Origin: Minisyncoccota bacterium
Lineage (GTDB): Bacteria > Patescibacteriota > Minisyncoccia > Phycocordibacterales > Phycocordibacteraceae
Direction of reading: 5' to 3'
DNA: 64,000 bases
Assembly: GCA_018062445.1 (NCBI GenBank)
Contig: JAGOSG010000003.1
Span: 29,842 to 93,841, forward strand
The notes under the pieces are model-generated. The model saw only the letters and a program-made list of their open reading frames with translations. It did no database searches and was not told the DNA's origin. Shown here piece by piece: positions 33,066 through 42,186 of the stretch; within the stretch, counting starts at the first letter, position 1, and every line of letters starts with the position of its first letter. The translations under genes were made by a program, and so were the position numbers.

Positions 33066-34595
33066 ATGATTGTAGTTCTCAATTTTGGAGGACAGTTTGC
33101 TCACCTTATTGCAAGAAGGGTCCGTGATCTCGGCGTGAAGGCCGAGATTTTGCATGGAGACGCAACGATAGCTGAGATTCAATCCCTGAATCCCGTGGGC
33201 GTTATTCTCTCAGGAAGCCCGCATTCAGTACTCGAAGGTGGTCCGCTACCAGACAAGCGAGTATTTGAGCTTGGTATCCCTGTTCTTGGTATTTGTTACG
33301 GGCATCAATTAATGGCGCATCTTTTAGGTGGAAAGGTGCAAAATAAAGAGAATAAAGAGTTCGGAAAAGAAGTTGTTTCAATAAAAAAGAAAACAGGCAT
33401 TCTTAAAGGACTTGTAGCGAAAGAGGTTGTATGGTTTTCACACGGCGATCAAGCAACAAAGTTACCAAAAGGATTTGTAATTACGGCTTCTACTAAAACG
33501 TGTGCACATGCAGGATTTGCAGACGAGAAACGCAGGTTTTTTGGTATTCAATTTCATCCAGAAGTAACACATACGGTCCATGGGAAAAAAATAATTTCTA
33601 ATTTTATTTTTGGTATCTGCAAAGCCAAAAAAGATTGGGATATGAAGTCTGTTGCGAAAAATATTATTGTAGACTTAAAAAAAGAAATTGGTGACGGACA
33701 TGTGGTGGTCGGTATTTCTGGTGGCGTGGATTCGCTTGTTGCTGCCACTCTGCTCTATAAAGCAATAGGAAATCGTCTGCACGCAGTTTTTGTAGATACA
33801 GGCTTACTCCGCAAAGGGGAAGTGGAGAGCGTTTCCAAATCTCTTCGCTCACAGGGATTCAAAAACCTGCATGTTATTGATGCAAGTGACATGTTTTTAT
33901 CGCGTTTGGTGGGGGTTATTGAACCAGAAGAAAAGCGCAAAATTATTGGACACTCGTTTGTAGAGGTTTTTGAAAAAGCGCTGACTGAAGAACTAAAGGC
34001 ATATCCAATTGGCTACCTTGCGCAGGGGACTATTTATCCTGATCGTGTTGAGTCAGCCTCAACATCGAAACACTCATCCAAAATAAAAAGTCATCACAAT
34101 CTCACACTACCCGAGCGAATGAAATTAAAAATAGTTGAGCCAGTGAAAGATCTGTATAAGGATGAGGTGCGTCGTGTTGGAGAAGAATTAGGATTGCCAC
34201 ATGCGCTCGTATGGCGCCACCCATTCCCAGGCCCAGGGCTTGCGATTCGTATTGTTGGTGAGATTACACCTGAACGCCTTGCGATTTTGCGTGAAGCAGA
34301 CGCTGTGTTTACTGAAGAGCTAAAGCTGGCAGGGGAGTACGAGAAGATTTGGCAGTCATTCGCCGCATTATTGCCTCTCAAAGTAGTTGGCGTTATGGGT
34401 GATGCTCGCACGTATGAGTACATAATTGCGCTTCGCGCAGTTGACTCCATAGATGGAATGAGCGCTGACTGGCACAAGATGCCACACGAACTTTTGGAGA
34501 AAATCTCAAGTGCCATAGTTGGCAAAGTTCGTGGTGTAAATCGGATTTTGTACGATGTTACCCAGAAACCTCCTGCAACTATTGAGTACGAGTAG
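33066..34595 (+). CDS. guaA: GMP synthase (glutamine-hydrolysing)
   Basis: GATase1 domain (GICYGHQLM), ATP-PPase SGGVDS, C-terminal dimerisation domain ..TIEYE. Confidence 0.95.
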   Translation: MIVVLNFGGQFAHLIARRVRDLGVKAEILHGDATIAEIQSLNPVGVILSGSPHSVLEGGPLPDKRVFELGIPVLGICYGHQLMAHLLGGKVQNKENKEFGKEVVSIKKKTGILKGLVAKEVVWFSHGDQATKLPKGFVITASTKTCAHAGFADEKRRFFGIQFHPEVTHTVHGKKIISNFIFGICKAKKDWDMKSVAKNIIVDLKKEIGDGHVVVGISGGVDSLVAATLLYKAIGNRLHAVFVDTGLLRKGEVESVSKSLRSQGFKNLHVIDASDMFLSRLVGVIEPEEKRKIIGHSFVEVFEKALTEELKAYPIGYLAQGTIYPDRVESASTSKHSSKIKSHHNLTLPERMKLKIVEPVKDLYKDEVRRVGEELGLPHALVWRHPFPGPGLAIRIVGEITPERLAILREADAVFTEELKLAGEYEKIWQSFAALLPLKVVGVMGDARTYEYIIALRAVDSIDGMSADWHKMPHELLEKISSAIVGKVRGVNRILYDVTQKPPATIEYE

Positions 34596-34741
34596 CTCAC
34601 CTTTTCGGTTTTTCGGATACCATTTTTTCTTCTGATTTCGGTTTTATTTTTGCCTCTGGTGCACCACGGCCTTCGCCAATAAATGCTTGCCCGTCATTGT
34701 TGTACGGCCACGGAGCCGATTCTTTTTTGTTCATAGTGTTT

Positions 34742-35440
34742 TTAAGTGTTGGTAGTGCTCGTGCCCATGAGGGCGTTTTTCCCTTTCAGGAAGACCGCTT
34801 CGAAGTTGCGGACGGTTATAAGTGGTCGTAGGTCGTTGTCGCGCATTCCACTCCCACTTTGCACAAGGTCTGCCGTTATATCTGCAACACCAAATGCTGG
34901 GGCACCCTCTACTGAGCCATCCATATATTCAATTGATTTTGGAATTATATTTTTTGTAGCAAGGTAGTTTGCTACTATTTTTGGGAATGATGTTGCTATT
35001 GTTTTCCCATTTATGCCCTCCAGTGTTGTTATTGGTGAGTTTTTAGGAATTTGAATAACTAACGAAGATTCCGCACTACCTAATTTTGTGGCAATAAGGT
35101 CTTCTAACCCCATTTCAATTGCTTTGTCTTCTCCTACAATTCCAAAATCAGCTTGCCCTCTTTCGACTAATCTTGGTATGTCACTTTGTTTGAATAAACC
35201 GATTTTTAGATTAGGGGCTAAAATTGGCGAAATCACCACTCTCTTGTCTCGTTTTTTGGAGTCGATTTCTGGGACATCTATTCCGGCAGTTTCCAAGCAG
35301 GTAGATAATAATGCCCATGAAATTGCCGACAGTCTGCCGTCTTTCTGAATAGCAATGCGGAGATCTTCCTGCGTCTCTATTGCTTTGGAGAGAATATTGA
35401 TTGCTTCTTTCATACGCTGTATGGCCATATAGGTCGCCAC
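34742..35440 (-). CDS. hisG: ATP phosphoribosyltransferase (HisG-like)
   Basis: LRIAIQKDGRLS N-terminus and HisG fold; no other his genes nearby. Confidence 0.7.
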   Translation of the reverse strand: MATYMAIQRMKEAINILSKAIETQEDLRIAIQKDGRLSAISWALLSTCLETAGIDVPEIDSKKRDKRVVISPILAPNLKIGLFKQSDIPRLVERGQADFGIVGEDKAIEMGLEDLIATKLGSAESSLVIQIPKNSPITTLEGINGKTIATSFPKIVANYLATKNIIPKSIEYMDGSVEGAPAFGVADITADLVQSGSGMRDNDLRPLITVRNFEAVFLKGKNALMGTSTTNT

Positions 35441-35670
35441 CCATTACCGTCGCAGTTCACGCAGGGCTTGCTGTCGTCATCCCACTTCTCGCATTTCACT
35501 ACACGACGAACTCCCCTGCATATCTCGCAGGTCTTATTTGAGCCTCTACACAGAGGACAGATAATTGATTCTTCGCGTTCTTTTTCTATTATCACTTTTC
35601 TTTCGAGTCGCCTATAGAGACCAAATGCTCTCCACATGGCCTGTTTTGTTACACTGAGTTTCTCGTTCAT
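35410..35670 (-). CDS. small Cys-rich zinc-ribbon protein
   Basis: Three CxxC pairs; overlaps hisG start by 31 nt; preceded by 32-bp palindrome. Confidence 0.45.
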   Translation of the reverse strand: MNEKLSVTKQAMWRAFGLYRRLERKVIIEKEREESIICPLCRGSNKTCEICRGVRRVVKCEKWDDDSKPCVNCDGNGWRPIWPYSV

Positions 35671-35725
35671 ATTTTTTTATTAGATTTGTATTTTTTATTC
35701 GTTTATTTTTCCCTTCTACTTTGTG

Positions 35726-35757
35726 TATGTATCACTGTAGTACTACAGTGATACATA
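35726..35757. promoter_or_regulatory. perfect 32-bp palindrome TATGTATCACTGTAGTACTACAGTGATACATA (copy 1)
   Basis: Exact self-complementary 32-mer about 55 nt upstream of the zinc-ribbon/hisG start; identical copy at 36378. Confidence 0.6.
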
Positions 35758-35801
35758 GCGGAAAGCGTTCTTGTGTTCAACGATGAAGGTTCAGCCATTC
35801 A

Positions 35802-36020
35802 CTAGCCTTCACGGAGAAGGTCCCAAGGATCTGCCTTACTGCTCTCTAATATTTTCCGCATCTCTCTGTCTTCCTCAGTGAACGCTCCAGGTGTGTTGCG
35901 TTTAATCAGAAAGTTTTTATCCTTGAGTCGCAGAGGTTTCTGTCTTCTACTTTTTCCATTTTCCATAATTGATGTAGTTAGCATAATAAAAAACCGCCTG
36001 TGGGGCGGTATGCATTTCAT
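35802..36020 (-). CDS. hypothetical small basic protein (uncertain)
   Basis: ORF between palindrome copy 1 and the TrpR-like gene; the annotated longest ORF overlaps the upstream gene, so the start is taken at an internal Met. Confidence 0.25.
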   Translation of the reverse strand: MKCIPPHRRFFIMLTTSIMENGKSRRQKPLRLKDKNFLIKRNTPGAFTEEDREMRKILESSKADPWDLLREG

Positions 36021-36051
36021 TTTTCTTTTCTTGCCTCTGATTTTTATCAGA

Positions 36052-36375
36052 TTATTTTTTATGCAGTCGAGAAATGATGGTGCTGTATCCGCCCCGTCCA
36101 TGGTGGAGCCAATGGGAAACACGACTCACTGTCGTAGTTGATGCACCTGTTTCGTCTGCTGCGTTGCGGTAGGAAACATCTTTGGTAAGGAGGCGAGCAA
36201 TAGCAAAACGCTCAGCAAACGCTTCCAGCTCTGCCTTAGTGCAAAGGTCACGCATGAATGCAGAACACTCCTCACGATTTTTTAGTGAAAGAAAGGCAGT
36301 ATATAAAGCCTCTAGGTTTTGCTTCGAACCTGAGGTTTTTGCAGAGGCTTTGTTTGTGGTGTTCACTCTATTCAT
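36052..36375 (-). CDS. TrpR/YerC/YecD-family DNA-binding protein
   Basis: HTH LTKDVSYRNAADETGASTTTVSRVS resembles Trp-repressor family; start taken at internal Met so the CDS begins 3 nt downstream of palindrome copy 2. Confidence 0.6.
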   Translation of the reverse strand: MNRVNTTNKASAKTSGSKQNLEALYTAFLSLKNREECSAFMRDLCTKAELEAFAERFAIARLLTKDVSYRNAADETGASTTTVSRVSHWLHHGRGGYSTIISRLHKK

Positions 36376-36377
36376 GG

Positions 36378-36409
36378 TATGTATCACTGTAGTACTACAG
36401 TGATACATA
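36378..36409. promoter_or_regulatory. perfect 32-bp palindrome (copy 2), putative autoregulatory operator
   Basis: Identical to 35726-35757; immediately upstream of the TrpR-like gene. Confidence 0.6.
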
Positions 36410-36533
36410 CTGTAGCAGAGAGATGTAGATGAAGTCAAGTTGGGCGGAAACGGGGCTAGGTTGGGGGCAGATGATGTCGAGCCGAAAGCAGATGTTGCCT
36501 TAAAGACCTTTTGTGTCTTGGGAAGATAGATTG

Positions 36534-37786: not shown

Positions 37787-37857
37787 GCGGGATTAGTTTA
37801 ATGGTAGAACATCAGTTTTCCAAACTGATAGCAAGGGTTCGATTCCCTTATCCCGCA
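37787..37857 (+). tRNA. tRNA-Trp (anticodon CCA)
   Basis: Acceptor gcgggat/atcccgc, anticodon loop tTCCAaa, T-loop ttcgatt. Confidence 0.85.
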
Positions 37858-37866
37858 CCTTAATTA

Positions 37867-37906: not shown

Positions 37907-38058
37907 GCGGGATGAGTGAGCAAATGGCTTTGCTCACGTAGGGAATCGAAAAGCGCAGGCATATTTTTGTTTGCGTTTCGCAAGGCAAAAATGCCGAGCT
38001 GGGGTCGCGAGAAATTTCCGTCAGGAAATTTACTTGTGACCGATTCCCTTATCCCGCA
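37907..38058 (+). ncRNA. tRNA-Trp-associated structured element (family of 3)
   Basis: Starts gcgggat (same as tRNA-Trp 5' end), hairpin gagtgagcaaa..tttgctcac, core gtagggaatcgaaaagcgcagg, nested hairpins, ends gtgaccgattcccttatcccgca (copy of the tRNA-Trp 3' end). Confidence 0.45.
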
Positions 38059-38065
38059 CCCATTT

Positions 38066-40745: not shown

Positions 40746-41393
40746 CTAGTCTTTCGAGCCTCTCTTGTAGATATCGTCAATGATGCCGTATTTCTTGGCT
40801 TCATCTGAGGTCATCCAATAGTCACGCTCAGCATCAGCTTCAACTTGTGCGAAGGTTTTGCCAGTATTCTTTGCGAGAATTTTATTGAGATTCTCTTTGG
40901 TGCGGAGGATGTGCTTTGCAGCGATTGCAATATCTGTTGCTTGTCCTTCTACGCCACCCATAACCTGGTGAATCATTACTTCTGAGTTTGGAAGGGTGAA
41001 GCGCTTGCCTTTTTTACCCGCCGAAAGAATGACAGCGGCAGCAGAAGCAGCAATACCAACGCACACCGTTGCGATGTCAGGCTTTACGTAGTTCATGGTG
41101 TCCAAGATTGCCAAGCCTGCAGATACTGAGCCACCCGGAGAGTTTATATAAAGGAACACATCTTTTTTTGGATCTTCCGCTTCAAGGAAAAGAAGTTGAG
41201 CAATAACAAGGTTCGCAGTGTAGTCATCAATCGGACCTCCCAAGAAAACAATGCGCTCTTTTAGAAGGCGCGAGTAGATGTCATACGCACGTTCACCGAG
41301 AGCGGTTTTTTCAATGACCATTGGGATGACACTGTTTGAAGGGGCTTGTGTTTTTTTGTTCGTCATAGTGTCTTCACTATACTCCAGCTTCAC
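40746..41393 (-). CDS. clpP: ATP-dependent Clp protease proteolytic subunit
   Basis: [23 protein letters not shown], active-site region [11 protein letters not shown]; start may be the internal Met. Confidence 0.9.
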
Positions 41394-42186
41394 TTTTCAC
41401 GCCAAGTCCAGATTGTTTGTCGAGTCGTTTTGCTTCCGCCCACGCCAGCTCAAAAATTTTTTTCATGGCGTCAGCAATCTCTGCACTCTCTATGATGATG
41501 CCGAGTTTTTCTCGCCATGAAGCAATCATTACTTTGTTGTCATATACATTGATTGCGGGATGAAAGCCAAATTGATCGGCCGGAACAAACACTGATTCAC
41601 GATATTCTTCGGGGTCTTTTTTTGCCCGCTCTATTCCCATTGAGGTCTGCGGGAATATCGCGCGCATAAATAATTTTCTCTTCGCGCGTCGTCGGTAGTA
41701 TTCTGGAAAGTATCCTTTTATGACGGAATGCTGATCTTCAATAGAGGAGAAAGCGATTATATTGTCCGACTCTGCCTTTAAACTATCTTCAAAAACATAC
41801 CGCAAGCCTTCGATTCCTTCATAAAACTTAATTTGAGGTCGAGTTGCAGATTTTTGTATTAGCTTAAGCTCAGATGCAAATTCCTTAGCTTTCTCAGCGG
41901 CTCGGGTAGATTCTTCAGCTTGCTTCTCTAGGTATGTTGCAAGTTTATCGGGAGACTCTGCGTAGTATTCTTGCTTCGGTTTTTTCCCTGACATGCTCGC
42001 GAGCCCTTTATTGATGAGTGAATCAAGGATTACATAGGTAGTGGCTCGATTAACATTTGCCTTACGCGATGTCTGCGCAACGGTACCTCTATCAATAGTT
42101 AGGAGGGCGATATACACAGAGGCTTCTTTCTCTGAGAGGCCAAAGGAAATCAATTTTCCGGTGAGATTATCGACTGGTTTTTTCAT
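41377..42186 (-). CDS. TrmB-family transcriptional regulator
   Basis: N-terminal wHTH ([13 protein letters not shown]..), C-terminal TrmB-like domain; upstream of clpP. Confidence 0.55.

Follow-up and report, generated by a model that had tools for sequence, protein, structure and literature searches.

Predicted HisR operators in a Patescibacteria genome: a perfect 32-bp palindrome upstream of hisR and of a lone hisG

Organisation of the hisR-hisG locus

We analysed a 64,000-nucleotide (nt) stretch of contig JAGOSG010000003.1 (hereafter the window) from a Minisyncoccota bacterium, a member of the Patescibacteria (Parcubacteria/'Pacebacteria'), in which a perfect 32-bp palindrome occurs twice. 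One copy lies upstream of hisR, which encodes a repressor of the TrpR family, and the other upstream of a unit containing hisG, the gene for ATP phosphoribosyltransferase (ATP-PRT). All of the relevant genes are on the minus strand, where they are arranged in the order hisR promoter, palindrome copy 2, hisR, a terminator hairpin, an open reading frame (ORF) of 60 amino acids (aa), palindrome copy 1, an 86-aa ORF, hisG and a 45-aa ORF. From comparison of these sequences with those of related genomes we predict, with a probability of about 0.8, that the two palindromes are operators of the adjacent HisR.

The palindrome, TATGTATCACTGTAGTACTACAGTGATACATA, is exactly self-complementary and is present with 0 mismatches at 35726-35757 (copy 1, O-hisG) and 36378-36409 (copy 2, O-hisR), both features being strandless. 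The expectation for such a palindrome by chance is 0.00 in 100 dinucleotide-preserving shuffles, and searches with the 32-mer, its central 22-mer and the 16-nt half-site found no further copies with up to 3 mismatches anywhere in the window. The direct repeat is 33 nt long, a G preceding both copies, and copy 2 forms a 34-bp palindrome when its flanking G/C pair is included. The core of the 32-mer is CACTGTA-GTAC-TACAGTG, with a central spacer of N4. TGTA/TACA elements recur at positions 3, 11, 19 and 27 and this 8-bp phasing creates two overlapping TGTA-N12-TACA 20-mers.

Copy 2 adjoins a sigma-70-like hisR promoter, located by a consensus scan at 36409..36438 (minus strand), which comprises a -35 element TTGACT (36438-36433), an 18-nt spacer and a -10 element TACAGT (36414-36409). 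The palindrome overlaps the last base of the -10 element and ends 2 nt before the hisR ATG at 36375. The arrangement TTGACn-17/18-TAnnnT is kept at hisR in nine orthologous loci, with divergence of the spacer sequence. Copy 1 precedes the first ORF of the hisG unit by 55 nt. Here, a putative promoter can be read from the sequence at 35752..35780 (minus strand), with a -35 element TTGAAC (35780-35775), a 17-nt spacer and a -10 element TATGTA (35757-35752) that coincides with the first six bases of the palindrome. The same TTGAAC-17-TATGTA arrangement is found in L086 and L001 (L numbers denote the loci used for comparison).

The adjacent repressor belongs to the HisR (YerC/YecD) family

The hisR gene (yerC/yecD; 36052..36375, minus strand) encodes a 107-aa helix-turn-helix protein of the TrpR family. 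It matches the Pfam family PF01371 (Trp_repressor; 1.5e-23, 83.1 bits, cut-off 27) and the NCBIfam model TIGR02531 (YerC/YecD family TrpR-related protein; 84.3 bits, cut-off 42.2), and residues 19-107 are homologous in sequence to the solved HisR/YerC structures 3FRW (2.9e-20), 3G1C (4.8e-17) and 3KOR (5.9e-17) in the PDB. The acidic helix-2 motif EEC..F.RDLCT..E.E...ER is present, and the closest database proteins come from metagenome-assembled genomes (MAGs) of Patescibacteria, Paceibacterota and Kaiserbacteria. TrpR proper was rejected, the TIGR01321 score of 24.5 bits being below the cut-off of 67.25.

These results largely uphold an earlier note, made from the sequence of the window, which had described a duplicated palindrome unlikely to arise by chance, 3 nt upstream of a 108-aa TrpR/YerC-family protein and 55 nt upstream of a zinc-ribbon ORF overlapping hisG. 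The duplication, its improbability and the 55-nt spacing (from an ORF start at 35670) stand as described, as does the overlap with hisG. The family assignment, for which the note had looked to the TrpR/YerC hidden Markov models, is confirmed by TIGR02531 at twice its cut-off. The position of copy 2 just ahead of the repressor gene is likewise correct, but the distance is 2 nt and the protein one residue shorter than had been proposed.

YerC is the published histidine repressor HisR, a TrpR-family protein in which the tryptophan-contacting residues of TrpR are replaced (PMC9413887). HisR regulation has been predicted in 492 genomes on the basis of palindromes of about 20 bp upstream of his operons and histidine transporters; sites are also found upstream of hisR itself in around half of the genomes, such that autoregulation is frequent, and DNA binding by R. 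gnavus HisR in vitro requires L-histidine as a corepressor (PMC9413887). The motifs are lineage-specific, with consensuses cacTTTA-N6-TAAAgtg and TGTAnTArnnnnyTnTTACA, and the lineages studied were Firmicutes, Actinobacteria, Synergistetes and Proteobacteria, Patescibacteria not being included (PMC9413887).

The locus in the window resembles these regulons (PMC9413887) in the family of its regulator, in having a palindrome upstream of both a his gene and hisR, and in the location of hisR directly upstream of hisG. The site itself matches the published consensuses only in part: as in cacTTTA-N6-TAAAgtg, CAC...GTG frames a T-rich/TA half-site, and the TGTA-N12-TACA frame recurs, but the spacer (N4) and the length (32 bp) differ. 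Published targets are a his operon or a histidine transporter, whereas the predicted target in the window is a single hisG with small ORFs. Downstream placement of hisG relative to hisR is shared by the window, L001, L085, L086, L104, L113, L116 and L117, and among 80 distant loci there are 18 in which hisR immediately precedes hisG.

The palindrome is conserved at hisR in related genomes

Orthologous loci of relatives were recovered by exact-protein look-ups. A contig search with an alignment of HisR gave at least 600 distant homologues with a best identity of 51%, and among the matches listed there were no close Parcubacteria loci. The 32-mer at hisR is identical and in the same position in L001, L086, L104, L111 and L113, and 30/32 bases are retained in L085. 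In these six loci HisR is 70-95% identical and the flanking coding DNA 69-87% identical; L001 is 95% identical to the window. By our arithmetic, the probability that all 32 bases remain unchanged at a background identity of 72% is approximately 3e-5 per genome. The copy near hisG has been retained in the window, L001, L086, L104 and L113, and in L111, a locus without hisG, it has dwindled to a relic with 6 mismatches.

More distant orthologues display other long palindromes at the same promoter position, namely a perfect 24-mer, TATCAGCGTATTAATACGCTGATA, in L116 and a 32-mer with one mismatch in L117, and L114 has a degenerate version of the window 32-mer there. This variation tracks the regulator: HisR proteins with the recognition helix ...RVSHW... 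accompany the identical 32-mer, and those with ...RVA[HY]W... (L114, L116 and L117) accompany a degenerate or different long palindrome. Related yGTA-N4-TACr cores are found in the hisR promoters of Peregrinibacteria, where in one case (L006) hisR heads a hisG-hisD-hisC operon. No gene other than hisR neighbours the site in every locus. At the level of sequence, this pattern of conservation supports a sequence-specific, HisR-linked operator with autoregulation. Together with the family assignment, it lends support to the proposal of the earlier note that a dimeric repressor controls its own gene and has hisG in its regulon.

A search for the 18-nt core in 241 million metagenome records returned 24 matching stretches. 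About half of these contain the core alone (arm 9), or have other arms in contigs unlike those of Patescibacteria, and were taken as unrelated; the Patescibacteria-type matches include hisR and hisG sites. One metagenome sample contains six exact-core copies over three contigs that together span 609 kb. The copy number of the palindrome is low, as expected of a small regulon. At 2 copies per 64 kb it falls short of the high intergenic copy number of a dispersed repetitive extragenic palindromic (REP)-like or mobile repeat. The earlier note had reasoned that many copies in unrelated intergenic regions would point to a generic repeat; so few matches among so many records speak otherwise, yet a few copies in relatives do lie away from promoters, and these are left unexplained by promoter control.

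Several other identities for the palindrome were discarded. A phage or mobile origin was rejected, the core having 0 matches in viral contigs. The palindrome is not an intrinsic terminator, no T-tract following either copy and the terminator scan reporting neither of them, and it is not a known RNA element, Rfam at gathering thresholds finding only four tRNAs in the window. It contains an ATG that opens an in-frame hisR extension, MYHCSTTVIHT. This coding interpretation was ruled out by a 2-nt difference in L085, which breaks the frame, and by annotated homologues that begin MN...

A stand-alone hisG in an exchangeable segment

The gene downstream of O-hisG, hisG (34742..35413, minus strand), encodes a 223-aa protein that is, by family assignment, a bona fide short-form ATP-PRT (PF01634, 4.1e-32; TIGR00070, 122.6 bits, cut-off 75.75). 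It is 100% identical to an NCBI-named ATP phosphoribosyltransferase from a Candidatus Pacebacteria MAG, and no match to PF08029 was found for a C-terminal regulatory domain. No other his genes, whether for the partner HisZ or for the downstream pathway (hisIE, A, F, H, B, C and D), were found within about 9 kb, and tblastn with the HisIE of a relative detected no hisIE in the window. The description of hisG as a lone gene in the earlier note is therefore accurate for the window but does not extend to close relatives, which have hisG-hisIE at the same place. A literature search on hisG in Patescibacteria found nothing.

The layout of the unit differs between genomes. A 283-aa hisG is followed by hisIE in L085, L086 and L104, hisG is found alone in L117 and with an AstE/AspA-like gene in L116, and L111 is devoid of hisG; in the window and L001, a Cys-rich ORF is combined with the 223-aa hisG and hisIE is absent. 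The long-form HisG of relatives (encoded at L085 6424-7278, L086 6724-7575, L104 2623-3474 and L117 6001-6816) is extended at its N-terminus by about 75 aa (MNETLKRP...ILEYY...) that precede the canonical catalytic domain and match no family. The HisG of the window is only 43% identical to that of L086 and approximately 45% identical to that of L104, despite flanks that are 85-89% identical in DNA. Conversely, its gene is 83% identical in DNA to that of L113, the flanks of which are only 70-72% identical. We therefore conclude that a segment downstream of the operator has been exchanged. Comparison with L086, L104 and L113 places this segment at 34742-35690, with an upstream breakpoint at approximately 35657, inside the first ORF after the operator.

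That ORF (35410..35670, minus strand) encodes a lineage-specific, Cys-rich protein of 86 aa with four CxxC motifs (CPLCRGS, CEICRGV, CEKW and CVNCDGNG). It overlaps hisG translationally, sharing 4 nt (35410-35413) with a hisG ATG at 35413. Searches of Pfam and NCBIfam at E up to 5 assigned it to no family, the DnaJ CXXCXGXG and anti-TRAP families appearing only at E>0.2, and it has only one homologue (92% identical) among 5.8 billion proteins. Relative to L113 the ORF constitutes an insertion of about 250 bp, and it employs the MNE.. start that belongs, in relatives, to the long-form hisG. Between the window and L001 it shows 4 synonymous and 6 non-synonymous codon differences, a ratio that does not decide on selection.

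The palindrome varies symmetrically

We aligned 17 instances of the palindrome and counted changes at paired positions. Within the inner 14 positions of each arm all changes are two-sided, with none confined to one side: A6/T27 has become G/C in two cases and T7/A26 has become C/G in one, between the orthologous sites of L090 and L091. Three measures of covariation lie above all 500 shuffles. Palindromy also extends into flanks that are specific to individual instances, with arms of 19-23 in L090, L091, L097, L105 and L113. The left flank in L113 is homologous to the flank in the window, and the right flank complements it exactly.

Symmetry this perfect probably exceeds what protein binding needs. 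It could reflect either selection acting on a hairpin or cruciform or a correction process templated by the hairpin (template switching), and we favour the latter because transcription of hisR should start within the left arm. The simplest account is probably that template-switch correction is superimposed on selection for a HisR box. Quasipalindrome template-switch mutagenesis is a known mutational mechanism in E. coli, and it would account here for both the two-sided substitutions and the outward growth of perfect palindromy exemplified by L113. Template switching is not known to have shaped operators in Patescibacteria.

Evidence against HisR operators and alternative explanations

Several observations do not sit easily with the palindromes being HisR operators. 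The putative hisG promoter is not conserved in L104 or L113 and, because of this, we treat it as inferred. In L085, L116 and L117, no site separates hisR from hisG. The site in the window departs from the published HisR consensus both in its spacer (N4 vs N6) and in its length (32 vs 20 bp). In relatives, copies with the same core are found where a promoter is not evident. Two of these lie where convergent genes meet (L086 8439-8470 and L097), one separates khpA from trmD (L110) and one follows a gene for malic enzyme (L105). The copies at L086 8439-8470 (= L102) and L097 2811-2842 are symmetric variants, TATGTGTCAC...GTGACACATA, which the operator model leaves unexplained; their convergent neighbours are a small ORF and guaA (L086) and the genes for an ABC-transporter ATPase and a TrmB-family protein (L097), with neither promoter nor T-tract evident. 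Moreover, a dimeric repressor explains the conserved sequence but not the strict symmetry, which is what a hairpin-based element would show.

The palindrome might then be a structural hairpin or cruciform repeat of the REP-like kind, acting at transcript ends, in RNA stability or as a roadblock, or simply a small mobile palindrome, the placement of which at hisR and hisG is incidental or matters only at the RNA level. The occurrence of copies, in relatives, where convergent genes end and in unrelated intergenic DNA is in keeping with this, as are the compensatory and strictly symmetric variants, the covariation above all shuffles, the extension of pairing into arms of 19-23 and the stability of the predicted RNA hairpin (-26 kcal/mol, z = -4.6). 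We nevertheless consider such an element improbable, since the sequence itself, beyond its pairing, is invariant at hisR across loci with flank identities of around 70%, and its position is locked to the -10 element, such that transcription of hisR would begin within the left arm, leaving the transcript unable to fold into the full hairpin. In addition, the palindrome is followed by no T-tract, its copy number is very low, Rfam finds nothing and a transposase/RAYT gene was not seen nearby; different palindromes occupy the same place in distant hisR orthologues, and the site decays upon loss of hisG.

Recognition by a DNA-binding protein other than HisR (LexA-like, TrmB-family or other) appears very unlikely to us. 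The core CTGT...ACAG does recall the E. coli SOS box, TrmB-family genes occur at 41377-42186 in the window and close to one variant copy of L097, and the Firmicutes HisR consensus is not matched exactly. However, the LexA SOS box of the E. coli type (CTGT-N8-ACAG) does not fit the N6 spacing seen here or the neighbours, hisR and hisG, with no SOS genes being associated. Furthermore, hisR alone is always adjacent, the operator sequence changes with the recognition helix of HisR, and an autoregulated hisR with his targets is the published pattern (PMC9413887). It is similarly hard to credit that the copies are primarily recombination sites bounding an exchangeable cassette in the manner of attC or dif, with regulation secondary. 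The hisG segment downstream of copy 1 is indeed mosaic, and in L086 palindromes flank hisG-hisIE and a small ORF on both sides. Yet there is no integrase or recombinase gene at the locus, the upstream breakpoint (~35657) is about 70 nt beyond the palindrome and within the first ORF, the window has no downstream copy, and the hisR-proximal copy bounds nothing variable.

Predicted mechanism of HisR control

Taking the palindromes as HisR operators, HisR dimers would bind both sites and, by analogy with characterised HisR, L-histidine would be the required corepressor. O-hisR covers the last base of the -10 element, the predicted transcription start and the whole of the short leader up to the ATG, and bound HisR would therefore exclude RNA polymerase, resulting in negative autoregulation. 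At O-hisG, the palindrome itself would supply the -10 element for the unit comprising the Cys-rich ORF, hisG and the 45-aa ORF, such that HisR would occlude RNA polymerase and would also block read-through from upstream. The 8-bp phasing of the TGTA/TACA elements suggests a TrpR-like mode of tandem binding by two or more dimers, which may be cooperative. E. coli TrpR shares with the predicted system its fold family, autoregulation and an operator placed over the -10 element and start site. As in the E. coli trp/aroH/trpR operators (TGTAcTnGTnnACnAgTACA), the TGTA...TACA ends are separated by 16 bp, and the 8-bp half-site phasing fits tandem dimers.

Hardly any transcriptional regulation is known to have been characterised in Patescibacteria. 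The circuit described here is very probably a known one, textbook-like in its core and already published for other phyla, operating in a phylum without a prior description of HisR and in a tiny groundwater bacterium. It would provide Patescibacteria with a regulator-operator pair consisting of a 107-aa protein and a 32-bp site, with histidine as the likely ligand, and would carry the concept of the HisR regulon into a further phylum, where the box is distinct and unusually long. The palindrome instances also constitute a data set in which a long operator evolves only by symmetric changes. Furthermore, a hisG under predicted control persists, apparently without the other genes of the pathway, in organisms regarded as auxotrophic for amino acids. 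A parallel can be drawn with Acholeplasma laidlawii, a histidine auxotroph of reduced genome that keeps HisR though it is without the biosynthetic pathway (PMC9413887). There, HisR controls the hisXYZ transporter operon, whereas the predicted target in the window is hisG, and among the relatives it is either hisG-hisIE, a gene of the AstE/AspA type or one for a 203-aa membrane protein of no known family.

The last two of these were noted in the comparison of loci. A gene for a 203-aa multi-pass membrane protein is preceded, at a distance of 52 nt, by the same palindrome (arms of up to 23) at L088 475-506, L090 2473-2504 and L091 599-630. Here the palindrome comes straight after a gene of the IMPDH/GMP-reductase family, with purN and metK nearby. 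The membrane protein from these three loci has no Pfam or NCBIfam family and is a candidate for an additional HisR target, possibly a transporter. In more distant relatives, a gene of the AstE/AspA family (succinylglutamate desuccinylase/aspartoacylase-like) comes directly downstream of hisR, after hisG in L116 (6657-7577) or after a 311-aa gene in L114 (6297-7016), and could be a further part of a HisR-controlled unit.

A more far-reaching reading, which we think unlikely, joins the symmetry of the operator to the isolation of hisG. HisR would no longer govern histidine synthesis but a stand-alone short HisG (without hisIE in the window, L116 and L117, and located by guaA and purB) acting outside the canonical pathway, for instance in the economy of ATP/PRPP or purine nucleotides. 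The operator would in turn be a self-perfecting palindrome, as the two-sided substitutions and the growth into flanks might indicate, perhaps seeding copies and marking the bounds of horizontally exchanged hisG cassettes. A non-canonical role for HisG, as suggested in the earlier note, is a possibility compatible with the recurrent loss of hisIE.

Other features of the locus

A terminator-like hairpin with a T-tract follows hisR at 35993..36009 (minus strand), and the same hairpin is found after hisR in L085, L086 and L113. Between this terminator and copy 1 is the conserved 60-aa ORF (35802..35984, minus strand), the product of which has the C-terminus ...GAFTEEDxExxKxLESxxDPWDLLREG. It is a called gene in L001-L003, shows 60% identity over 40 aa to a 56-aa ORF of L086 and has a homologue in L111. 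The conserved 45-aa ORF (34597..34734, minus strand; ..PWPY..GQAFIGEGRGAPEAKIKPK..) closes the hisG unit, immediately next to the 3' end of guaA (33066-34595), which is convergent with it. It is 64% identical to a 47-aa ORF of L086, is also present in L085 and L104, and encodes an identical protein in L001. These two small ORFs, to which no family was assigned, are kept across related genomes whichever hisG cassette lies between them, and their homologues in L111 have degenerate palindrome relics upstream.

Neighbouring genes within about 9 kb include purB and those for an ECF sigma factor, a DUF5667 protein, a trypsin-like protease, tRNA-Gly and HU and, further, RNase Y, ClpP, the TrmB-family regulator (41377-42186) and trigger factor. 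The last 20 nt of tRNA-Gly(TCC) (37787-37859), CGATTCCCTTATCCCGCACC, at 37840-37859, are repeated exactly at 38041-38060, 201 bp downstream. Hairpins lie between the two copies of CGATTCCCTTATCCCGCACC, and the arrangement resembles a scar or att-site pair left by integration at a tRNA gene.

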